A stretch of 64,000 bases of DNA from Giardia intestinalis (GCA_000002435.2 CM018793.1), one strand, 5' to 3'; positions 413-39,093 are shown, numbered from the stretch's first letter. The notes: generated by a model from the letters alone, not told the origin. A program made the numbers and translations.

Positions 413-1525
413 ATGTTACTACCAGCTCTCTGCTTTTTGATGAGCGGCCTCGCCGCGCAACGCACTAAACAACCCACGTCCGGCTGCCAGGTCGACAACT
501 GCGAGCGGTGCGTCCCCAGCGACGAAACAAAGTGCGAGGCGTGTAACTCTGGCTTCGACCTCGACGAAAACACAAAGCAGTGCAACCCAGCGCCGGCCGA
601 GTGCCCGATCGTGAACTGCCAGACGTGCTCCCAGGACAAGCAGACTTGCGTGGCATGTGAACCAGGCAAGCATCTGACCCCGACGAAGAAGGCATGCTTA
701 GATGCCTGCCCTGTCGGAACGTATCTATCCGGACAAACGTGCGCGCCCTGCGACCCCTCCTGTGCGGAGTGCAGCGGGGCCGGCGCTTCCAAGTGCACGG
801 CCTGTCCCGCCGGGAAGATGCTGAGGTACACCGACGAGACCAAGCTTAATGAGGGCGGCCAGTGCGTGGAGCAATGTGTGGAGGGCCCGGAGTGCGAGAC
901 GTGCGGCCTAACAATTGGAGGTACCAAGTACTGCTCGAAGTGCAAGGGGAGCAACGTGCCGCTCAATGGCGTCTGCACAAGCAACGCGGCCAGGACTCAG
1001 TTCTGCACCACTGCCGCTGACGGTGCCTGCACGGCCTGCGCCGCCGGATACTTCATCCAGGAGGGCGGGTGCTACCAGACGACGAGGCTCCCCGGGAAGA
1101 GCATCTGCACGACTGACAATGGAGGGAAATGCCAAACGTGTGCTAACGGACAAACCCCAGACGGAGGGACTGGAGTGTGCCCGTTGTGCGACTCCACCTG
1201 CAAGACGTGCACAGCAGGACAGACACAGCAGTGTCAAACTTGCTTCTCTGGGTACTATAAGTCTGGAACAAAGTGTGTGAAGTGTGATGCTAGTGACGGC
1301 CAAATTACTGGCGTAACCGATTGCGTGAGTTGTGCTCCACCATCTGGTGATAGCGGTTCTGTCACTTGCTATGTGAAGATGGATGGCAGCAGTGGAGGGA
1401 ATAGCACGAACAAGAGCGGGCTCTCCACGGGGGCCATAGCTGGTATCGCCGTGGCTGCTGTCATAGTTGTTGGTGGTCTCGTCGGCTTCCTCTGCTGGTG
1501 GTTCATCTGTAGAGGAAAAGCATAG
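413..1525 (+). CDS. Variant-specific surface protein (VSP).
   Basis: The ORF-track start at 398 is GTG; the first ATG is at 413 and gives the signal peptide MLLPALCFLMSGLAAQ. There are many CXXC motifs and a GGCY motif. The C-terminal hydrophobic anchor AIAGIAVAAVIVVGGLVGFLCWWFI is followed by the invariant Giardia VSP tail CRGKA and a stop. Confidence 0.93.
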   Translation: MLLPALCFLMSGLAAQRTKQPTSGCQVDNCERCVPSDETKCEACNSGFDLDENTKQCNPAPAECPIVNCQTCSQDKQTCVACEPGKHLTPTKKACLDACPVGTYLSGQTCAPCDPSCAECSGAGASKCTACPAGKMLRYTDETKLNEGGQCVEQCVEGPECETCGLTIGGTKYCSKCKGSNVPLNGVCTSNAARTQFCTTAADGACTACAAGYFIQEGGCYQTTRLPGKSICTTDNGGKCQTCANGQTPDGGTGVCPLCDSTCKTCTAGQTQQCQTCFSGYYKSGTKCVKCDASDGQITGVTDCVSCAPPSGDSGSVTCYVKMDGSSGGNSTNKSGLSTGAIAGIAVAAVIVVGGLVGFLCWWFICRGKA

Positions 1526-26479: not shown

Positions 26480-29400
26480 ATGGAATGTGCTGGATTGATC
26501 CAGTCAATCTCAGACTTCTATGACGTAGAGAGCGTGGCGAAAACTCAGTTTGGTGCAAGCTTCTATCTTGTTAGAGACAGATCTACTGGCACTTGTTTAA
26601 AATTGATCTCTATTGAATTTACGGATAGCTGGATCCGGAGACAGGCTAGTAAGGAGGCCTCTCTCGATTATTGCTCATCCCTCACTAATCCTGGCCTAGC
26701 AAAATATCAAGGGTGGGTCAAAGAACAATCGTCACAGGTCTTGTATGTAAAGGTCGTGTATCCTAGCAGTCCAACAATATTAACACTTTTAGCTCGCAAT
26801 CATGCCTTTTTAGAAGATGCTATTTGGGATATTGCCACAAATCTGGTGGAGCTTCTCGTCTATTTACACAAGCATCACTTGCTAGCTTGGTCTGGCTTGT
26901 CGCCCTCTTTTGTGCATTTGACCACTCAAAACGAACCTATCTTAGATAACTATTTCGCTTCTTTTCGTTTTAGAACGCTTCTATCAAAGGTTGTCGATCC
27001 ATTTTTGGCTCCAGAAATTTCAAGCATGTACTTATCAACCTCTGAGAAGATATCGGACGCTACCTATCTGGACAAGGAGTGTGCCATATCGGCTGAAGCT
27101 GATGCGCAGTTTGGCACCAATGGAACATCAAATCGAAGCACATGTACGAAGAACCCCCTTGCTTTAAATATTAACTCTATTGATACTAGCTCCTTCGCCA
27201 ATTGTGATAATCTCTCAACCCCTCGCAATGATAGAAATGATTTTACAATAGAGCAGGGCCTGGGAGTTTTTAAGTCATCTGTCACACCTTGCTTAATTCA
27301 CCGACTATCACCCTCACATGCATCCTCGGCCCGTCAAGGTGATGCTCCTCCGCCATCTTCATATTCTAAGGAGGGATCTGAAGAAATACAAAGGGTGCAG
27401 CATATGATAGAACTAGCAGGTCTCTCGCCGTCCAAGCAGTTTAAGGCTGATGTTTGGGCCATGGGAGCTCTCCTGTTGTGTCTCTGCCTTGGTCGGCCAC
27501 TGAATCATAGGGACGATTGTGTGCACCTGGCAACTGATCTTCGCAAAAACTCCAAGCTAGGGTCATGCTTATACTCTTACTCGTTGTGCTCATTCATCTG
27601 TAGCTGCTTACAGCCAGACCCTGTGAAGCGACCAGCTCTATCTATACTCAAGGAGCGAATACAAATCCATATGGCGCCCCGTCTATCTTTACCCGAATCC
27701 TTACGGGGAAGCTTCTGCTGTCACATGAGCGAATCAACGAGCTGCACAAACCAGCTTATTCTAACCACTCCCCGAGGGTGCATCCCCAGTAGTAACAAGT
27801 TTCAACAAAGGCAGCAGCTGAACTCTGAGCAGACTGATAACCCGCTGATAAAGGCAGCAGAAATTGGAAACTACGATGCAGTGAAGCAGAATATAGGATA
27901 TCTTGGTAAAACAGGGTCAGGAGGCCGGACAGCTCTGATGTTTGCTGCGGGGAATGGCCACACAAAGTGCATCAAGTCACTGATTAAAGAATCTCGTATG
28001 AAAGATCAGCAAGGGCTCACGGCCCTTATGTATGCTGTCAAGAATAGGTACAAAGACGCTATTCTCTCACTGGCCAAGGACGAGGCTGGGATGCAAGACG
28101 ATCAGGGGTTTACTGCGCTGATGTACGCTGCTATAGACAATAACAGTGAGATTGTATCCATTCTCATGAAGAAAGCAGCAGGTAAAGAGCTCAAGAAGCA
28201 AAATCTCAAGGGGGAAACGGCATTGATGATGGCGACCCAGTATTGGAACAATGAAGTAGCAGATTACCTTGTCAAGGAAGCAAAACTTATTAATGTGGAC
28301 GGTAGCACAGCGTTGATGTATGCAGCTAGAAATGGAAATGTGAACTATGTCAAGCTTCTAGCACCAAAGGAGGCAGGCATGAAAGCATTGAACGGGGACC
28401 GCGCGCTAGAGCTGGCGCTCATTAACTCCCATGCAGACTGTGCAGACATTCTTTCTCGCTATGAACTAAAGCTGCATGCAGGAGAAACTCCGTTGCTTTA
28501 TGCATTGAAGTCTGGTGACAAGCGCTTAGCGACAATCAGCACTCCGGTGTATTCACAAAGCCACGAGCTTTCTAACACCAGTCATCTTTCCTATGCCATA
28601 AAGAGCAACAATGCTCAAGCTGTCAAGGAGCTACTTTCGTTTGAACTGCCGTTCGTGCACCAGCCAGATGGAAGCTGCTTGGACTTAGCCATCAGAAGCG
28701 GCAGCTTTCAAATACTAAGCATTATCTATTCGTATGCTCTGGAACACTCTCTGGGGATTTGTGTTTCCCGGCGACTCGGGACTTCTATCACAAAATTGAT
28801 GAAGTGTGCGATAAGTAATGACGTAGCGGAGATATCGAACTATCTTTTTCAGTTGGGGCTAACTGACGTACACGGAAACACAGCGTTAATGTATGCTGTT
28901 CGGCACAGAAACCGTGATGCCACAGCTGCATTGGTATGCGAGGCAACCATCCAAAATCTAACTGGATGGTCGCCGCTGATGGTCGCTGCTGCGAATGGTG
29001 ATGCGGACTTGGTTCATGAGCTTGTTGAGCACTCTTATGGGCTTTTAACAAGAAGAAAAGAGACAGCCCTGATGGTAGCCGTCAAAGGAGGGTCTCTTCC
29101 TTGTGTGAGGCTACTAGCAAAAGCAGAGGCAAAAAAGCAAGACATTAATGGGACAACTGCTCTCATGTTGGCAGTTATTCTTAGAAATCATCCGATTGCA
29201 GAAGTGTTGATGCCCTTTGAGGCAGGGATGCAAGACGTCAATGGGATGACTACCCTGATGATAGCAGCACAATTGGGAGATGTGGACATGGTGCGCCTCC
29301 TTGCTAATCACGAAGCCACGCTGCAGACTAACTCTAGCTGTATTGATGGCGCTGGCTGGACTGCCATGATGTATGCGGCACGTGAAGGCCACTGTGAGGT

Positions 29401-30658
29401 TGTTGCTATCCTCGCAGCTCATGAGGGTAGCATGCAACTGGTGACAGGACGGACTGCCCTTATGATTTCAGCGTATGCACACAATGATTCCTGTGTGGAG
29501 CTACTCTGTACCATAGAAAGGGAGGCGCAGGATGAAAATGGCTTTACAGCTCTTATGTATGCAATTAACTCAAAGTATGACAGCTCCGATTTTATGACTA
29601 GGATGCAAGTTCAGCGATGTATTCAGCTGCTGCTACACGAGGCCTATCTTTCTGATTATGGTGACACGACTCCCTTATCCTTGGCTGCAAGTGTTGGTAA
29701 TTTGGATGTGATAAAGCTTGCCACCTCGAATCTCATCTTGCGTAAGCAACTTGTCAAAGTTGACTCTCAAGGCATGACAGCGCTTATGCACGCAGCCCTT
29801 CAAGGGCATGCTGATTGCGTGAAGGAGTTACTGAAATACGACAAAGCTACACTAGATAATATAGTCATCCATCTATCTCGGGAACGAGATGCTAATGGCA
29901 TGACTGCTCTCATGTATGCCTCCTGTAACAATAGAGCCTCATGCGTTGACATCCTCCTTCCGTTAGAGTGCAACATGACATCCAATGATGGAAGCACTGC
30001 GTTGATGCTCGCTGCACAGGAGGGGTACATCAACATAGTTAAGAAGATAGTCACTGGAAGCAGCGAGCTCGGTATGGCTAATCATAATAGATTGACTGCA
30101 CTTGCAGCAGCAGCATCAGGAGGGTATACTGAGTGCGTGAGATTTTTGCACAGCTCTTGCCTTGACCGAGGACTTTCTCTGACGACACAGGGCTTTACCA
30201 ATTTGATGCTGGCCGCTTCTCTTAACGATCTAGATGCAGTCCGAATGGGAATCGATGAAGGAGATGCACGGAAGACCAGTCCCATTGGATTTACAGCCCT
30301 TATGTATGCAGCTATCAATAATTCTATTGAATCTGTGCTACTTCTTGCGTCCTATGAAAATAAGATGACAACGGAGTCTGGCATAACTGCACTCATGCTA
30401 GCTTCTAAAATGGGTCACGTAAAGTGTGTCAAAGCCCTGATCCACGAAGAGGTAGGAATGCAAACCGTTCAAGGCTGGTCTGCACTGATGTTTGCAGCTT
30501 TCTCAAACAAGCCAGACTGTGTAGAGCTTCTACTTAAGACTGAGTTTACATTGAAGAATGAGGATGGTAACACGGCTCTTGACTTAAGTAGAATTTATAA
30601 GGCTAAAGCAGCTAATGAAATCCTTCATTCTTATCACGCATCACTCCGTCTTTTGTAG
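26480..30658 (+). CDS. NEK-like (pseudo)kinase fused to a long ankyrin-repeat array (Giardia Protein 21.1 family).
   Basis: N-terminal kinase-like fold in which the catalytic loop reads HHLLAWSGLSPSFVHL in place of HRDLKPxN. More than 20 repeats of the TALMYAA.NGH type follow. 1392 aa. Confidence 0.75.
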   Translation: MECAGLIQSISDFYDVESVAKTQFGASFYLVRDRSTGTCLKLISIEFTDSWIRRQASKEASLDYCSSLTNPGLAKYQGWVKEQSSQVLYVKVVYPSSPTILTLLARNHAFLEDAIWDIATNLVELLVYLHKHHLLAWSGLSPSFVHLTTQNEPILDNYFASFRFRTLLSKVVDPFLAPEISSMYLSTSEKISDATYLDKECAISAEADAQFGTNGTSNRSTCTKNPLALNINSIDTSSFANCDNLSTPRNDRNDFTIEQGLGVFKSSVTPCLIHRLSPSHASSARQGDAPPPSSYSKEGSEEIQRVQHMIELAGLSPSKQFKADVWAMGALLLCLCLGRPLNHRDDCVHLATDLRKNSKLGSCLYSYSLCSFICSCLQPDPVKRPALSILKERIQIHMAPRLSLPESLRGSFCCHMSESTSCTNQLILTTPRGCIPSSNKFQQRQQLNSEQTDNPLIKAAEIGNYDAVKQNIGYLGKTGSGGRTALMFAAGNGHTKCIKSLIKESRMKDQQGLTALMYAVKNRYKDAILSLAKDEAGMQDDQGFTALMYAAIDNNSEIVSILMKKAAGKELKKQNLKGETALMMATQYWNNEVADYLVKEAKLINVDGSTALMYAARNGNVNYVKLLAPKEAGMKALNGDRALELALINSHADCADILSRYELKLHAGETPLLYALKSGDKRLATISTPVYSQSHELSNTSHLSYAIKSNNAQAVKELLSFELPFVHQPDGSCLDLAIRSGSFQILSIIYSYALEHSLGICVSRRLGTSITKLMKCAISNDVAEISNYLFQLGLTDVHGNTALMYAVRHRNRDATAALVCEATIQNLTGWSPLMVAAANGDADLVHELVEHSYGLLTRRKETALMVAVKGGSLPCVRLLAKAEAKKQDINGTTALMLAVILRNHPIAEVLMPFEAGMQDVNGMTTLMIAAQLGDVDMVRLLANHEATLQTNSSCIDGAGWTAMMYAAREGHCEVVAILAAHEGSMQLVTGRTALMISAYAHNDSCVELLCTIEREAQDENGFTALMYAINSKYDSSDFMTRMQVQRCIQLLLHEAYLSDYGDTTPLSLAASVGNLDVIKLATSNLILRKQLVKVDSQGMTALMHAALQGHADCVKELLKYDKATLDNIVIHLSRERDANGMTALMYASCNNRASCVDILLPLECNMTSNDGSTALMLAAQEGYINIVKKIVTGSSELGMANHNRLTALAAAASGGYTECVRFLHSSCLDRGLSLTTQGFTNLMLAASLNDLDAVRMGIDEGDARKTSPIGFTALMYAAINNSIESVLLLASYENKMTTESGITALMLASKMGHVKCVKALIHEEVGMQTVQGWSALMFAAFSNKPDCVELLLKTEFTLKNEDGNTALDLSRIYKAKAANEILHSYHASLRLL

Positions 30659-30696: not shown

Positions 30697-32034
30697 CTAT
30701 GTGCTCTTGTCTGTCTGCAGTGACTCTAGTGAGTTTGCAATATCTAAGGATACAGCAGCTAGCTGGTCAGAGTGGGTCGAATCGTAGTCAGCTGTGATGA
30801 AGAACGGGATATTACCCTTTCTATCTGGCTTGAAAAGATATCCTTTTTTCAGGACATACGCACTTCCAGAGCTCTTAGAAAGAGTTAGCGGTCTGGACTC
30901 CTTGGTGTATACGTCGATGTTCAAAGAATGAGCAATCCCCATAAATGCGCAGATGTCCCATGGCTTCAGAAATCCATCTATATAAATGACACCAAAGCAT
31001 CCCCCAAGACCGAGGAGGAACTCCCTAAACTTACACAATGCACCATAGAAGGTTTGAAGACCATCCTTGGATCTAATCTTGATATGTGTCTCATCAGTTT
31101 GTTTGTCAATCCACTCCAGCAGCGGGTTGAGTCGGTCAGGTGACATATTCTGTATTTGAAAATAGTGCTCGGAGAAGGGCTTAGACTCAGAGAGCTGGCT
31201 CAGCCTGCTGGTCCAGAGAGTCTGTCGGTACTCAGTCAAGTTGCAATTGCAGTAATCACCATACTGGGCCCCGAAGAAAAGGTCTATCGGGACGTGTTGT
31301 TTCTTAAGTTCGGTAATCTGTGCGTGGAAAGGATGAAGCAATGCCCCATTGTCCATGTATATGTGTAAATCCTTCGGAAAGTTGTACTTGTGAAGGAGCT
31401 TCTTAGAGAAAAACGGATAAAACATAACTCCGGCTATTGCCTGGCCTTTATAAGTTAGCCCAATGCTCACTCCAACGCCAAATAAGCAGCCATGAACAAA
31501 GTTGAATGTGCCATCAAGAGGATCGACAAAGACAATACAATCTTCTACCGGTAGGTCAATAGAGCAGGGGACATGAGGAACCTTGTGGCAAGACATAGTT
31601 TGCTCTACAGGGCTGTCTTCATCATACCCCTGTAGGGCTTCTCTGGCTAAACACATAGACTTGCTGCACAGACTCCTTGGACTATGCTTTAATTTTGTAT
31701 GAGGGAGGCCGCAATCACTGGCCAGCGTGCTTATAGAAGAGATTCTTTCCTCTATGTTTGAGCTGCAGAGAACAGAAGATGATTCTGGAGAGCAGCCCTC
31801 ACAATTAACCTCTTCACCGACTATCTTCAACTGAGGAAACTGCCCTGTAAGCACTGAAAAAATCACGCGTTGCGCAGAACGATCAGCAATAGTCACAAAA
31901 TCCCCGTCATTAGATTTAGTCTTAATATCTTTCTCAATGCTGGAGGAATCGGCCCCCACCTTCACTATCACATCTCCTGCGCTGAATGCAGCTTCTACAG
32001 CTGTCTCTAGCCACTCTTGCAAATTCACTGTCAT
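30697..32034 (-). CDS. Inositol monophosphatase-family phosphatase (IMPase / bisphosphate nucleotidase / INPP1-type) with insertions.
   Basis: The IVGEEV metal site, the VDPLDGTFNFVHG (DPxDGT) signature and a C-terminal WDICAFMGIA (WDxAAG-like). 445 aa. Confidence 0.65.
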   Translation of the reverse strand: MTVNLQEWLETAVEAAFSAGDVIVKVGADSSSIEKDIKTKSNDGDFVTIADRSAQRVIFSVLTGQFPQLKIVGEEVNCEGCSPESSSVLCSSNIEERISSISTLASDCGLPHTKLKHSPRSLCSKSMCLAREALQGYDEDSPVEQTMSCHKVPHVPCSIDLPVEDCIVFVDPLDGTFNFVHGCLFGVGVSIGLTYKGQAIAGVMFYPFFSKKLLHKYNFPKDLHIYMDNGALLHPFHAQITELKKQHVPIDLFFGAQYGDYCNCNLTEYRQTLWTSRLSQLSESKPFSEHYFQIQNMSPDRLNPLLEWIDKQTDETHIKIRSKDGLQTFYGALCKFREFLLGLGGCFGVIYIDGFLKPWDICAFMGIAHSLNIDVYTKESRPLTLSKSSGSAYVLKKGYLFKPDRKGNIPFFITADYDSTHSDQLAAVSLDIANSLESLQTDKST

Positions 32035-32066
32035 TTTTTAAAGGGAAAATCTCACCATCTTTGATG

Positions 32067-35000
32067 ACAAGTTTTATAACGCAATCACCCGGTATACATA
32101 AAGCATCCAAGGTGCTTTTTCTATTGGAGCGCATTCTCGGCCCGCAGGATGACGAGGAGCTGTACTTAGCCATCACTGATGTTTTGGCTGCACTTAATAA
32201 GGAGAGCAAAGACATCGGGGTGTCCTATTTGGTCAACGTATTTGGTGATGTTGATCCAGATGCCGCTGCTCTTATTGGTGACCTTTTAGATGCAGCTTTT
32301 GAATGCCAGATTGAGCTTGCTGAATTACTGGATCAAGGTATGATAAATCGTGAAAAAAACCAGAAGAAACAGTGCCCTCCGGATGCTCATCTGTCCAGCA
32401 TCCTATGCAATGAGGTTCGTCAGTATTTTTCTGATTTTCTAACCTCAGACACGCTTCCTCATGGACAACTCTCCTTACCGGGGCCAATTTCTAATAAGCT
32501 TACTGGGAGTGATGAGTGTGCGCTAGTAGCGCTACCACCACCTGAGCCGACTGTCACGGCGTATGGGAATCGCACTGAGTACTCCCTGCTTTGGGAGACT
32601 AAGCATGCAAATGAGACTGTTTCTATTACTTCTGTGCTTGTTCGTTTACAGATGGATCTAGCATTTGGACGTGTCTATGGCTCTATTACCACCTTCAACA
32701 GCGTCCAGATGCGAGTAGTCGATCCCATTTTCAACGGGGGCAACACCCTCGTGGCAGCACCTACCGGAGCCGGAAAGACAAACATTGCCCTTTGGGCTAT
32801 GATATGTTTGCTCCATACTTCTCGTTACAAGTGCCGGCCGGCCCAATTGGTTGTTTACGTGGCCCCTCTCAAGGCGCTTGTGCATGAGATTCTCTCACAA
32901 TTGGAATCATCCTTCCAGCGACTTCCTAAGGAATACACTGCTACAATTTGTGAGTATACTGGAGAAGAGTCCATTTCTCTGAATACTATATCTTCTTTGC
33001 TTCATTGCCCACAGACAACCACAGCATTGGTAATTCTAGTTGCCACTCCAGAGAAGTTGGATGTGTTTACTTCCAAACTAACTGGAGAGGATTTCCAGCT
33101 GATTCGGAATCGCCTGGCTCTTATTGTTTTTGATGAATTGCATCTAATAGGTGATCACACCCGTGGGAGTGTGATTGAGGAATTGGTGCTTCGCTTTCAT
33201 AGACATTACCAGGAGGCTATGCTGCTAGCTCTGTCAGCAACGATTCCAAATGTCCAACAGATAGCAGATTTTCTTCGATGCGCATCAAGTAACACTCTTG
33301 CATTTGACTCGTCGTACAGAGCTGTTTCTCTGCAAGTAACAGTTTGTGAGTTGCATTATAAGCATTCTGAAGAGTCGTATTTACGTACAACGAGAGAGGG
33401 ATTTTTGCATAGCATCATTCCAAAGCAGCTATCCAAGGGAAGCATACTTTTATTTACACATACAAGACGTGATGCGGAACGATTAGCAATACAGCTACAG
33501 GCTAAGTTAGACACTACCAATTACTCTAACGCCTACGCGGAAAAATCTAGAAACAAGAGGCTCTATAGTCTTTTATCAACAAACTCGGCAGTATTGTTTC
33601 ACCACGCCGGGCTTACTCGCACAGATAGGTACCTAGTTGAGGAGCTCTTCGCTGAGAAAAAGATCTCTATCCTGGTGTCAACTGCGACTCTTGCCTGGGG
33701 GGTCAATATGCCAGCTCACACGGTTATTATTCTTGGTACAAAGGTATATGCTGACTCTTGCTGGGAAGACCTCTCTTTTGCAGATATTTTGCAAATGGCT
33801 GGAAGAGCTGGACGACCCTCCTTCGACACCAATGGTGAGTGCTTCATTATCCCATCAGCAAATGATGCCTATCGCTGTCTGACTATCTTTAGTAATAGAT
33901 TTAATATAGAATCATCTTTTTTAACGTCTCATACAGCACTTGAGAAGCTCTCAAAGCTAATTATAACAGAAGCATTTCTTTCTGCTCATGTGTTTGTAGA
34001 TGAACTAGTTCAGATTGTTCAGTCTTCACTGTTTGCAGTGCAACTGTTTGAAAGGCTTCCTAATTCACTGAATGGATCACAAATCATTACTGATATTGTG
34101 AGTACACTACTAGATTGCTGTTGCGATGTAAGTTTGTTAGAAAAAAAGCTTGACGACTCATGTCCTCATCTACTTCAATATCATCCTACACCCTTGGCAC
34201 AGCTGTGCGTCAAATATTATGTTTCGCCCTTTACTATCGTTCGATCCAATGCTGTTTTATCGCAGTCCCCAATCGACTCTATACAGCAGGCTTTATTGTT
34301 GATCGCAATGTCTCACGAATATGCTTCTATATTCGTAAGAGCAGATGAGGGATTTGAACTGACATCGTTAGAAGAGTATACTCCTATTAGATATCCGCCC
34401 TTTGTCACAAACCAGGGGCTCGGTAAGATCTGTCTTCTTTTGCAAGTCTACATTTCTACTGGGCCTTGTTATGGCACAACATCAGTTGCATTTAGTAGTC
34501 TTTCACTTATGTCCGACTATGCTAGCATTATCGCGTCTGCCCCAAGAATCACAGGATGCCTTAGAGAACTTGCGTGCCTTCTCATCCAAAGCAAATCTCA
34601 CCAGGCTCTAACCAGGCTGTATTGTATGCTTCAGTCTCGATGCTGGCCTGCGTTTCTATTTGTGCGAGAAGTTCTGAGCAATCCTTTATTCAAATTCGAT
34701 TTTCTCTCACCAGAGTACATACTGTGGATAGAACAATTAGAGTTAAAACAATTCAGTCCAAATGTTCTTCGCAGATTGACAGTAGACCAGCTTTCTCAGA
34801 TAATTGTTTCTCCAGATGATAGAACCCCACTCGATAAACGGCAGCTATCTCATCTACGCACAGCTATTGTAGGATACCCGATCCTCAGAGGTAAGATTGT
34901 AACCCTATGTCAGTTAGACCCTAAGCACTACGAGGTCCGGTTTCACTGTTGTCTTATCGGAAGCCAGACTATTCTTCGTTGCTCAGAGCAAACGTTTTCG

Positions 35001-36770
35001 TTACATTGTGCAATAGAGGCCGAAGAGAAGACGCTCAAGGCAATCTCTCTATCCATACAGCTCAATGAGGAACTAGATGTAACATTACGCTTCAGCGCTA
35101 CTGCCGAACTATGGGTGTGCAATATGCACCTTTATCTTGAAGAGCTTTTATTTGCCACGTCCTCTATACGTATTGATTTGGTAAGCGCAGACCCTAATAA
35201 GAGTTTAGTAGCAGGTGTGTCCATTAAGGAATGCAGTGGTAATGAGATATCAGCTATAACTGCTCATGTTGAGACCACAATTGCAAACCTGGGACGCGCT
35301 TCAGGCCTGAGCTCAGGATCCGATTCTGTTTTCATTGCAGGGAACTGTCTCTATCTACAGCAGGCGGAGATGCTCAGCAGCATTCTGTCTTTCATACGGG
35401 ACGTCTCAGCAAGTTATAAAGTAGATGCTTTAATTGTAGGCAGTGTCGGTGGGATCAGCGGACAACTTGCAAGGGAAAATAATATACCGTATATGAATAC
35501 GTGTACAGTTTACAAAGAAATTGACAAACTGTTTACAAGGCCTACAGCAATCATAATTCCGTCCATCGCAGAGCTAGCAGAGCCTATAGGCTATGTATTG
35601 GAGCTGCTTCTGATGAAGCTTATAAGAAAGGATACCAATCTACCTATCTTAGTCATTTCCTTTTCCATCGCTCTGGCTGATCATTCAATCGTCGCTTTGT
35701 CTCTCTTTCTTAATTCTAAGTCGTTTGTTATCAACGGGCCAGATAATTTGTTCACACAAACCGTTCCGTCACATGCTTACACTGTTTCGCCTAGCACTCT
35801 GTGCGATGATCCTAGCAGCGTACACAATGTATACGAAGCACTGCACATAGTCGATGATGATCCCGAAGTAAGCATGTTGACGCCCTTCTTTTTGTGCCAG
35901 TTTCTGATGATGTGCGCCACAACAGGAACAATATACATAACCAGGAACGAATGTATCACATCTGCCACCAAAGGAACCAACATTCAATATCTGAAATCCC
36001 AGTTACACACGGCTGATGGCCTCTTCATGCTGATTTCTGAACACTCTCAGGACTTCTATGACAAAGGATTTGATTACATAGCCGAAAGTATCATAACGAC
36101 CGACATTTCGCAGTCGTATCTTTACTTTTCCTTTTCAATTCTTCCTGGACAATATCTCAATTACAAAACTATGGTGAACTATCATCCTAAACCAGAAAAA
36201 GAAGATCTTCTTCGCGAGGAAGACGCCATGCTGGACAGGCTTTCCGATTGGATAAGTGAAGAGCTTATTGCACTAGAAAAGAATGCTACTGCCCTGTTTC
36301 GTGCCTGGAAAGATGATAGTCATGGTATGGATTGTAGCTTCAATACCCTCAACAGCTTCAGCTGTCTATCTATGGTAACAACCCGGCTTTGCATTGTGCT
36401 TGACGCAGATAGAGAGCAACTAGCTAAATCATCGTGGTTTTTGGCACTCTCGCAATCTATCCACAACTTAAGTTTGCTGTTGCTGTGTGCCTCAGGGGTC
36501 TACGGTAATGAATTGACTAATTATATTCAATATGAAAAGGCACTATCCTCACAAAAAGATCTCGACATTGAAAAAGCTATTCTAAAGATTTTAGCAAGCA
36601 TGGTGGATGCTTGTGCAGAGTCGAGGGTATATGCCCTACTAGTTGCGCTTACTTCGCTCGCCCTTCGGGTTCATAAAAGCGGAGATCAAGCGGTCCTCGA
36701 GGACACCATTCTATCAGGACAGTTGGAGAGGCTTCTTCGCAACACACTGCTTATAGATCTACATACGTGA
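32067..36770 (+). CDS. Ski2-like Sec63-type RNA helicase of the Brr2/ASCC3/HFM1 family, closest to a Brr2 N-terminal cassette.
   Basis: [13 protein letters not shown] (motif I), [21 protein letters not shown] (motif II), LSATIPN, and [46 protein letters not shown], which matches Brr2 [55 protein letters not shown] is also present. An ATG at 31986 would overlap the IMPase 5' end, so I prefer the ATG at 32067. The start is uncertain. Confidence 0.75.
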   Translation, partial: [1567 protein letters not shown]

Positions 36771-36795: not shown

Positions 36796-39093
36796 ATGAG
36801 ATTTCAAAAGATTAACTCTGCATTCTTTGAACTAAAAAAGGCCCCCTTTGAAATGGACCGTGTACAGATAGCAGACGGATGCGCTTTTATTCATCCGTCG
36901 CCTCTAGATACTATTAGTCATGTAGCTCTCGACGAGGAGAGGGAACTGAATCCATCCATCCCGGTCTTGAAGTTGGTCCGGAAAGCTTTCAAAAGGTTTT
37001 CTGATAAACCTTACCTCGGGTATCGTGCTGGCCTGGCCACGTGCGTTAAGGAGGTAACCGACAAGTATACCTACATGACCTATGGCGAGGCAGACTCCTA
37101 CGTGACCGAGCTCGCCAAGGTCCTGGCAAAGCTTGGTATTGGGAAAGGCGACCGCGTTGGCATCTTTGCACGCAACTCCCCCCTCTGGCTGCTTTTCGAC
37201 TTCGCGTGCACGGCCGTGGGCGCAGTGGTCGTCCCTATCTACGACACCCTTGGGGCCGCCAAGACATCGTACTGCATCAACCACGCAGAGGTTCGCCTTC
37301 TGGTCACTCAGACAGAGCTACTCCCACTGGTTCTCGGAATATGGCCATCGTGCCCGGAGCTGCAGCGCGTCCTAATTATCGATACAAGCATATCAGAACT
37401 AGATGACCAAACTATGAACAATTGCTTGCATAAGGCTGTGCCCTCATATATAGAGGCACAGCAGTCTGACGGGGCTTCCCTCGGAATTGACCTATCCAAG
37501 CTTTACGTGGCTGGGAAAGCAGATGACTCTGTTTACAAATTCAATGTGCTCTCTACTGTTACGTCCCAGCTGGGAGCCTTATCTGATGCCACTGATGTTC
37601 GTATGGCTAATGCGAACATCAATGACTCAAATACTCACATAGCCGAGGTAATTAACGAAATCTTGGAAAAAACACAGATTAAGGAATCGCCAGGCAAAAT
37701 ATCTTTTTTGAAGAACATGCTGGATGAAGTGAAGGGCCTTGACTACAAAGGGGACTATGAGGCAAGCGTGGATGAGGTGCACACTATCCTATATACCTCT
37801 GGATCGTCTGGAAACCCTAAGGGAGTGACACACACCCACAGTACAATACAAGGGTCTTACACCATGGTATATGGATTTCTTCCATATGTATCTAGGGACG
37901 GTGGTCAAATGGTAACTATGTCCTATCTTCCTCTCGGCCATATATACGAATCTGCTGGAGAGATACTTTTTACCGTCCGGGGGTACAAGATAGCATACTA
38001 TAGTGGTAACACAAAGAACCTAACCACGGACATCAAGCTGGCCAAGCCGACGATTCTACTGGCCGTTCCGCGGGTGCTCCAGAAGATCTACAACGCCGTG
38101 ATGGCGAAGGTTGAGGCGTCGCTTGTCAAGAAGGCTGTCTTCTGTCTAGCATGCAAGGTGAAGGAGTACACGGAGGGGTCCTGGATTAAGACGGGAACAC
38201 TCCCCTGGCTCGACAACGTCGTCTTCAAGGACATTAAAGCCGCCCTCGGGGGCCACCTCGAGCTCATCGTCAGCGGATCCTCTGCTCTCCCCCAGGAGGT
38301 GTGGCGATTCATGCGTCTCTGCACCGGTGCTCGGATCACATGTGGATATGGCTTGACAGAGACGTGTGCTTCTGGTCTTTGTCAACTTCCTCACATGCCT
38401 TATGTGGGATCGCCGACAGGAAGCCTTGTGCCATTCATGCAAGCTAAGCTCATTGACAAGAGCGACACCTGCGAGCTCTCGCTGAAGACTCACCGTGTTG
38501 GGGAGCTTCTCCTGAAAGGTCCCGGCATTGCGAAGGAGTACTACAAGATGCCGGAGAGCCCTCTACGGGACGCGGACGGCTACTTCCACACGGGAGATCT
38601 GATGAGGCTCAACGATGACGGTTCCCTCACATTTGTCCGCCGCATAAACATGGTTGTGAAGTCTCTCATGGGCGAATTCATTGACATATGCGCAGTTGAG
38701 GACGCCATGGAGAAGAGCCCACTCTTTGCAAGCGTCTTCGTGCATGCTCAGAGTGACAAGTCGTTCCCGATTTGCGTTGCTGTCTTGGACAAGACTGCGC
38801 TTGCTCACCGTCTGAAGTGTAGCACTGATGATGTGGAGAAGGCCGAGTACGCAGCTGCAACCAAGAAGATTCTTGAGGCCGAGGCAGCATCCTTTGTCAA
38901 GCGCGTTGGGCTAAAAGGATATTGTGTCCCCAAGTGTTTCAGGTGGCTCTTTGATATCGATTGGAGCACGGACCAAGATCTCATGACTCCGTCCCTGAAG
39001 AAGCAGCATCGCTTCTTTGCGAAGCGCTACGCTGCGGAGATTGCAAGCATGTGGGAGGAGCTAGAAGGCTCTGAGCGTGCTCTGGCAAAGTAG
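36796..39093 (+). CDS. Long-chain acyl-CoA synthetase (AMP-binding enzyme).
   Basis: The AMP-binding signature YTSGSSGNPKGV, then GYGLTET and the conserved TGD in FHTGDLMRLNDDG. 765 aa. Confidence 0.85.
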   Translation: MRFQKINSAFFELKKAPFEMDRVQIADGCAFIHPSPLDTISHVALDEERELNPSIPVLKLVRKAFKRFSDKPYLGYRAGLATCVKEVTDKYTYMTYGEADSYVTELAKVLAKLGIGKGDRVGIFARNSPLWLLFDFACTAVGAVVVPIYDTLGAAKTSYCINHAEVRLLVTQTELLPLVLGIWPSCPELQRVLIIDTSISELDDQTMNNCLHKAVPSYIEAQQSDGASLGIDLSKLYVAGKADDSVYKFNVLSTVTSQLGALSDATDVRMANANINDSNTHIAEVINEILEKTQIKESPGKISFLKNMLDEVKGLDYKGDYEASVDEVHTILYTSGSSGNPKGVTHTHSTIQGSYTMVYGFLPYVSRDGGQMVTMSYLPLGHIYESAGEILFTVRGYKIAYYSGNTKNLTTDIKLAKPTILLAVPRVLQKIYNAVMAKVEASLVKKAVFCLACKVKEYTEGSWIKTGTLPWLDNVVFKDIKAALGGHLELIVSGSSALPQEVWRFMRLCTGARITCGYGLTETCASGLCQLPHMPYVGSPTGSLVPFMQAKLIDKSDTCELSLKTHRVGELLLKGPGIAKEYYKMPESPLRDADGYFHTGDLMRLNDDGSLTFVRRINMVVKSLMGEFIDICAVEDAMEKSPLFASVFVHAQSDKSFPICVAVLDKTALAHRLKCSTDDVEKAEYAAATKKILEAEAASFVKRVGLKGYCVPKCFRWLFDIDWSTDQDLMTPSLKKQHRFFAKRYAAEIASMWEELEGSERALAK

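Follow-up and report, generated by a model that had tools for sequence, protein, structure and literature searches.

What remains of the second helicase cassette in the Brr2-like protein of Giardia intestinalis, and is this protein a spliceosomal Brr2 at all? The question is raised by the gene GL50803_9352, an open reading frame (ORF) within a 64,000-nucleotide (nt) stretch of the genome (GCA_000002435.2, CM018793.1; the whole stretch is hereafter called the window). A first-pass annotation of the window had described a Brr2-like Sec63 helicase with one recognisable ATPase cassette, and had proposed either a Brr2 whose second cassette is extremely degenerate and does not bind ATP or a Mer3/HFM1-type meiotic helicase. 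From sequence comparisons and structural models, we lean towards the view that the ORF encodes the Giardia spliceosomal Brr2, with one intact cassette and a tail that is the remnant of the second. The gene and its reduced single-cassette architecture are already known. Every Giardia assembly, from assemblages A, B and E, has it annotated as a putative U5 small nuclear ribonucleoprotein (snRNP) 200 kDa helicase, and Giardia U5-200K has been listed as DEAD+Helicase_C+Sec63, as opposed to the doubled human architecture (Korneta et al. 2012, PMC3424538, Table 9). The present result is a refinement of that published observation.

How many cassettes does the protein hold? All of the Ski2-type helicase motifs, I to VI, are intact in the N-terminal cassette (Table 1), and the Pfam matches comprise exactly one DEAD domain (amino acids (aa) 213-399), one Helicase_C domain (499-585) and one Sec63 domain (708-999). 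When the N cassettes of Brr2 and ASCC3 were combined in a hidden Markov model (HMM), aa 198-1030 matched it over its whole length (positions 3-824), with a score of 817 bits; this coverage and the Pfam Sec63 match indicate that the winged helix and Sec63 unit completing the first cassette are present. No second match to the cassette HMM was found in any Giardia sequence, whereas each of the scanned two-cassette Brr2 and ASCC3 proteins gave one, albeit weak in a few lineages. The earlier count of a single Walker A (GAGKT) is borne out, and the search for DEAD, Helicase_C and Sec63 domains over the full length, which had been suggested as a check, returned one set of each and no second intact cassette. 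The motif TATLAWGVNMPAHTVII, which had been quoted as a close match to the Brr2 N cassette, is indeed present, but it does not discriminate Brr2, because the ASCC3-type paralogue of Giardia carries TATLAWGVNMPC at this motif (PMC3566956, suppl. 7). The ratio of nonsynonymous to synonymous substitution rates (dN/dS) of the active cassette is 0.11-0.12 (WB vs P15).

Beyond the first cassette lies a tail of 538 aa (1031-1568), about 290 residues short of a full cassette of about 830 aa. The first-pass annotation had given this part about 600 aa, which is too long, and no P-loop, which is correct: neither GK[ST] nor a conserved DExH occurs in the tail in any of five Giardia lineages, by which we mean here and below the five orthologue clusters of the window helicase. 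Judged by its sequence, the tail is unable to bind ATP through a P-loop. The tail is nevertheless under purifying selection. Its frame is unbroken, with 49-63% identity at the deepest comparison, and because it is uninterrupted and of conserved length in five lineages and has dN/dS values of 0.13-0.23, we regard it as functional. The most constrained part is a near-invariant block at aa 1350-1377, to which neither a fold nor a homologue could be assigned. No match to the tail was found among the sequences of the PDB.

Is any part of this tail recognisable as a second cassette? Profile-profile comparison gave the same register with all four profiles used, namely Brr2-C, ASCC3-C, Brr2-N and ASCC3-N. 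In this register, AIIIPSIAEL is aligned to motif II (IIDEIHLL), EPIGYVLELLL to the RGpVLE helix, which follows motif II in such helicases, and LPILVISFSIAL to motif III (vRivGLSAT). The corresponding hhalign P values were 0.017, 0.035, 0.21 and 0.14, and none of 60 column shuffles reached the observed score for either C-cassette profile. The segment from aa ~1075 to 1215 was also modelled as a RecA-like domain, with strands and helices where the profile register predicts them, and this domain begins about 45 residues past the first cassette, at the place where the RecA1 domain of a second cassette is expected. It has AGNCLYLQ instead of a P-loop, PSIA instead of the DEIH of the DExH box, and SFS instead of SAT. 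Modelling of the C-terminal region for a RecA-like fold lacking motif I, which had been put forward as a check, gave such a fold for this segment, at moderate confidence. Profiles and model together suggest that aa ~1075-1215 are probably a relic of the RecA1 domain of the second cassette. The proposal of a Brr2 with a degenerate, non-ATP-binding second cassette is therefore the best-supported one as far as this remnant reaches, whereas the remainder of the tail is unmatched and about 290 residues are missing.

A number of observations weigh against this interpretation of the tail. The relic rests on one profile match of 53-60 columns with weak P values (0.017-0.21), the RecA-like model is of moderate confidence and was built from six close sequences, and Foldseek matches its fold to P-loop NTPases in general, at a best E value of only 3e-3. 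The sequence beyond aa ~1215 matches no RecA2, winged-helix or Sec63 part, and two-thirds of the tail are unassignable. Against RecA2 profiles, the tail middle gave four inconsistent local matches, none above shuffles, and against winged-helix and Sec63 profiles the helical end gave nothing significant, two different Giardia segments being matched to the ratchet-helix region. In profile-profile dynamic programming, local alignments reached z values of 2.2-4.2 relative to column shuffles and long collinear chains no more than 1.6, which is not significant; the global mode of hhalign was uninformative, and comparison through intermediate sequences with the decayed C cassettes of other lineages gave nothing significant. 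An AlphaFold2 model of aa 1206-1568 alone had a mean predicted local distance difference test (pLDDT) score of 35 and was unusable. An exhaustive search of 1.84 billion representative proteins with the tail profile returned Giardia (the G. intestinalis complex) only. The confinement of the tail to the G. intestinalis complex, the generic fold matches, the weak P values, the non-significant long alignments and the unassignable two-thirds speak for a rival reading, in which the protein is a Brr2 but the 538-aa tail is a Giardia-specific addition, its RecA-like look being an artefact of modelling or that of an alpha/beta fold of a general kind. Set beside the common register and the position of the modelled domain, we consider such an addition unlikely, and we retain the RecA1 relic. 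Candidate remnants of motifs IV, V and VI picked out by eye (IYITRNE, HTADGL, LPGQYLNYKTMVNY and AMLDRLSD) were dropped, as the RecA2 matches did not rise above shuffles.

To which family, then, does the intact cassette belong? A search of the PDB sequences returned human Brr2 with an E value of 3e-111 (376 bits), residues 478-1131 of Brr2 being aligned to residues 208-869 of the query. Hel308, Ski2 and Mtr4 scored far below Brr2 and ASCC3, and the matches of Ski2 and Mtr4 spanned aa ~460-620 only. Ski2/Mtr4 can be ruled out, given the presence of a Sec63 domain and the lack of a DSHCT match in Pfam. A second intact cassette or a place in Ski2/Mtr4 would, according to the first-pass annotation, have refuted its reading, and the protein has neither. 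In a neighbour-joining tree of 64 cassettes (727 columns, 200 bootstraps; N and C cassettes of Brr2 and of ASCC3, HFM1 and Giardia), Giardia together with the Brr2 and ASCC3 N cassettes was split from all C cassettes and HFM1 with a bootstrap value of 0.99, and a grouping of Giardia with HFM1 received 0.01. Across the five Giardia lineages, the profile scores were 349-364 bits for Brr2-N, 328-352 bits for ASCC3-N and 253-272 bits for HFM1. The Brr2-N profile exceeded the ASCC3-N profile in all five lineages, by 11 to 24 bits; leave-one-out controls for the comparison of these three profiles were separated correctly, by 44-247 bits. Of the 14 columns with the greatest power to tell Brr2 from ASCC3, 7-8 show the Brr2 state in Giardia and 1-4 the ASCC3 state, which resembles the 7 and 3, respectively, of Leishmania Brr2, used as a control. 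The Giardia cassette is highly divergent, scoring about 360 bits on the Brr2-N profile vs 940-1230 bits for other Brr2 proteins left out of the profile.

For a single-cassette meiotic DNA helicase of the Mer3/HFM1 type speaks the domain count, which is the same (one active cassette with a Sec63 unit). This reading is very improbable in view of the tree, of an HFM1 profile score about 80-110 bits lower than that of Brr2-N, and of the rank of the nearest HFM1 sequences, which come only 82nd to 86th among the best matches. Because the helicase is not HFM1, it says nothing about cryptic sex in Giardia. The distinction between Brr2 and ASCC3 is finer. The phylogeny that had been proposed as a check placed the Giardia cassette with the N cassettes of these two families and away from HFM1, but it did not separate Brr2 from ASCC3: the long Giardia branch is basal among the N cassettes and joins neither. 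In the PDB search the scores were nearly tied (376 bits for human Brr2 and 374 bits, E = 1.4e-110, for ASCC3), and the count of signature columns ties under a relaxed threshold. No N-terminal domain specific to Brr2 was detected. The N-terminal region measures 197 aa vs 290-580 aa in the reference Brr2 and ASCC3 proteins, and no PWI domain or other Pfam match was found in it. Residues 17-50 (VLFLLERILGPQDDEELYLAITDVLAALNKESKD) resemble the plug helices of Brr2 (LL..iqq.lGdqP.dvlrgAADEvLavLKn), although 14 of 80 shuffles scored as well, and the E values of 0.0014-0.11 obtained with the plug HMM on the Giardia N-terminal region refer to a search space of one sequence.

The near tie in the PDB scores, the basal branch, the tied column count and the failure to detect a plug or PWI domain would suit a protein that branched off from ASCC3/Slh1, or from the stem of the Sec63 helicases, diverged, and was left without its second cassette. 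Such an offshoot would have a role other than splicing, such as ribosome rescue or RNA surveillance, with U4/U6 being unwound in some other way. We hold such an offshoot to be rather improbable, considering that the Brr2-N profile scores higher in every lineage and that the signature columns favour Brr2 under the strict threshold. Moreover, Giardia has only four Ski2-like helicases, GL50803_9352 among them (Gargantini et al. 2012, PMC3566956); in human and yeast, GL50803_9352 is matched best by SNRNP200 and BRR2 (PMC3566956, suppl. 4). Another, GL50803_87022, is a protein of 2421 aa with two intact cassettes, the best human and yeast matches of which are ASCC3 and SLH1 (PMC3566956). Its second cassette carries TSTLAWGLNLPA and QMAGRAGR. 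In our motif census, canonical motifs V and VI occur together in 15 of 16 ASCC3 C cassettes; among 32 Brr2 C cassettes, motif V is canonical in none and motif VI in one. GL50803_87022 would fill the ASCC3/Slh1 role, and therefore GL50803_9352 is left as Brr2. It tempers this step that GL50803_87022 was assigned from the published motif table and the motif census, its sequence standing outside the tree; a query made of its published motif strings yielded 85 word-sharing candidates, none scored. In addition, Giardia keeps Prp8 (PMC3424538), and Brr2 is among the spliceosomal proteins most retained across eukaryotes (PMC10158995). On this sequence evidence, the window helicase is quite likely an orthologue of Brr2, which is modestly favoured over ASCC3 through small margins and elimination.

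How might such a protein work? In Brr2, the motor is the N cassette; it is stimulated by the C cassette, a pseudo-enzyme that also provides a platform for interactions (PMC11498004). By analogy with this biology, the Giardia N cassette (aa 198-1030) would be the working motor that unwinds U4/U6 small nuclear RNA. On the reading that the evidence supports, the tail would be left over from the second Brr2 cassette, itself already non-catalytic, and past the RecA-like part it would have diverged beyond recognition. Like the C cassette in yeast and human, it may be a structural partner for the active cassette, a docking surface, or both, in this case without nucleotide. Giardia Prp8 has been reported to lack the Jab1/MPN domain, and Snu114 was not found in Giardia (PMC3424538); because of these reported absences and the short N-terminal region, it is suggested that most of the usual regulation of Brr2 has been stripped away. 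A further speculation, which we think doubtful, is that the tail has been rebuilt as a Giardia-specific, nucleotide-independent regulatory module that controls the active cassette in cis. Such a module might replace the ATP-binding C cassette, the plug/PWI region, Prp8 Jab1/MPN and Snu114, all of them reduced or reported missing, and the invariant block at aa 1350-1377 might then be its functional centre.

Where does the gene begin? An ORF at 31986..36770 (plus strand) of 1594 aa is obtained from the first ATG and one of 1568 aa from the ATG at 32064, so that both ends of the range of 1568-1594 aa given earlier are recovered; the earlier start at 32067 lies one codon too far in. The ATG at 32064 is the better start on sequence grounds, because the protein begins at the equivalent position in all five orthologue clusters (1562-1569 aa), because the current RefSeq model is of this length, because the extension overlaps the divergent neighbouring ORF at 30697..32034 (the first in-frame ATG lies 49 nt within this inositol-monophosphatase-family ORF), and because an A/T-rich stretch immediately precedes the ATG at 32064. 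The 26-codon extension is probably not translated. The RefSeq protein of G. intestinalis WB, XP_001705010.2 (1568 aa; also KAE8305925.1), is 100% identical to the window protein, from which we infer that the window is from assemblage A (WB). The superseded model XP_001705010.1 has 1594 aa, and GL50803_9352 has been listed as 4785 nt and 1594 aa (PMC3566956, supplements 1 and 4).

Table 1. Features of the helicase gene and its neighbours, in positions of the window (nt) and of the 1568-aa protein (aa).
Feature	aa	nt	Strand	Remarks
Helicase coding sequence (GL50803_9352), putative U5 snRNP 200 kDa helicase, likely Brr2		32064..36770	+	1568 aa + stop; ORF list, translation
In-frame upstream extension, 26 codons		31986..32063	+	Present in old 1594-aa gene model
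Short N-terminal region	1-197	32064..32654	+	Possible plug-like helix, aa 17-50
Complete N-terminal helicase cassette	198-1030	32655..35153	+	RecA1, RecA2, winged helix, Sec63 unit
Motif I / Walker A, APTGAGKT	232-239	32757-32780	+
Motif Ia, YVAPLKALVHE				Within N cassette (aa 198-1030)
Motif Ic, ATPEKLD				Within N cassette (aa 198-1030)
Motif II, DELH	357-360
Motif III, SAT	391-393
Motif IV, LLFTHTR				Within N cassette (aa 198-1030)
Motif V, TATLAWGVNMPAH	540-552
Motif quoted in the first-pass annotation, TATLAWGVNMPAHTVII	540-556	33681-33731	+
Motif VI, QMAGRAGR	577-584
Tail segment	1031-1215			dN/dS 0.23 (WB vs P15)
Probable RecA1-like relic of second cassette	~1075-1215	35286..35708	+
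VFIAGNCLYLQQAEM	1089-1103			At expected site of P-loop and following helix
IIIPSIAEL	1163-1171			Would stand for motif II
EPIGYVLELLL				Would stand for RGpVLE helix after motif II
ILVISFSIAL	1195-1204			Would stand for motif III
Strongly conserved tail middle	1216-1380	35709..36203	+	Invariant columns; dN/dS 0.13 (WB vs P15), low as helicase core; pLDDT <50
Near-invariant block QSYLYFSFSxxPGQYxxxxTMxNYHPKP, QSYLYFSFSILPGQYLNYKTMVNYHPKP	1350-1377	36111-36194	+	Five Giardia lineages
Predicted all-helical C-terminal end	1381-1568	36204..36767	+	Helices in both models, pLDDT <52; dN/dS 0.22 (WB vs P15)
Ankyrin-repeat protein, weak kinase match (Giardia NEK type)		26480-30658		Neighbour of helicase
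Inositol monophosphatase family protein		30697-32034	-	Neighbour, divergent from helicase
AMP-binding (acyl-CoA synthetase-like) enzyme		36796-39093		Next ORF, 25 nt past helicase stop

The order of genes around the helicase, from the NEK-type ankyrin kinase through the inositol monophosphatase on the opposite strand to the AMP-binding enzyme, is also found in assemblage E and in another Giardia lineage. Two of the Giardia orthologues, P0004 and P0005 (L002, Logan run ERR3333381), are 61-66% identical to WB and thus more distant from it than assemblage B (68%); they presumably represent other assemblages or species. The helicase gene called in L002 starts on GTG, probably a miscalled start. 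No orthologue from Giardia muris or another diplomonad was obtained in any search, including a word-indexed one with a full-length profile of the five lineages, which did not return the paralogue either.

What does this add to the published picture? In yeast and human Brr2, the first cassette is fully active only with the help of the inactive second cassette and its bound nucleotide, and the second cassette is also a docking hub. A Brr2 with a second cassette that no longer binds nucleotide and is shorter by a third, and that is under purifying selection all the same, would mark the minimal requirement for this cassette. A Brr2 so reduced would also fit the picture of a stripped-down Giardia spliceosome. 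At the same time, a tempting lead is removed: this is not a Mer3/HFM1 gene, and it offers no evidence on meiosis in Giardia. In the searchable literature we found no account of the RecA1-like relic, of purifying selection on the tail, or of an explicit exclusion of Mer3/HFM1; these are modest increments on a known case.

Compared with known systems, the Giardia protein shares with human and yeast Brr2/SNRNP200 the Ski2-like core with all of its motifs, the winged helix and Sec63, the N cassette aligning end to end, and in the model the non-catalytic region after the active cassette likewise appears to begin with a RecA-like domain. It differs in that P-loop, DExH, SAT and motif V/VI are all missing from the presumed second cassette, which would not bind ATP as it does there; in that this cassette is about 290 aa shorter and unrecognisable past RecA1; and in the N-terminal region, of about 200 aa vs about 400-480 aa, where no PWI domain is detectable and a plug helix is doubtful at best. 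The full-length tandem second cassette that binds ATP without hydrolysing it, a feature of Brr2, was not found in GL50803_9352. With ASCC3/Slh1, including GL50803_87022, the protein shares the type of cassette, at nearly equal similarity of the N cassette, but ASCC3/Slh1 proteins carry a pair of cassettes, each with canonical motifs (PMC3566956, suppl. 7), where the window protein carries a single one. A large group of two-cassette proteins of 2231-2310 aa (P0038-P0053, with up to 85 members per cluster), encoded on ENA metagenome contigs of about 7 kb, has a very divergent N cassette and a canonical C cassette; these proteins behave as eukaryotic ASCC3-type proteins. Mer3/HFM1, too, has only one active cassette, accompanied by a Sec63 unit; it forms a separate clade, scores lower as a profile and has no counterpart of the 538-aa tail.

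Parallels are found in Brr2 proteins of other lineages with an intact N cassette and a C cassette without Walker A (17-59 bits on the cassette HMM), for example P0071, P0073 (Leishmania tarentolae, related to PDB 9if7) and P0079; the C cassette of Leishmania Brr2 scores 36 bits. The tails of P0071 and P0073 (about 920-1060 aa) and of P0079 (about 660 aa) still give detectable cassette matches, in contrast to the 538-aa Giardia tail, which gives no HMM match. Loss of the second-cassette Walker A was seen in several Brr2/Slh1-type proteins of other eukaryotes (P0071, P0073, P0079 and P0077/P0078), with 17-106 bits for that cassette vs about 440-570 normally. As several lineages have second cassettes without Walker A, decay of the C cassette recurs in evolution.

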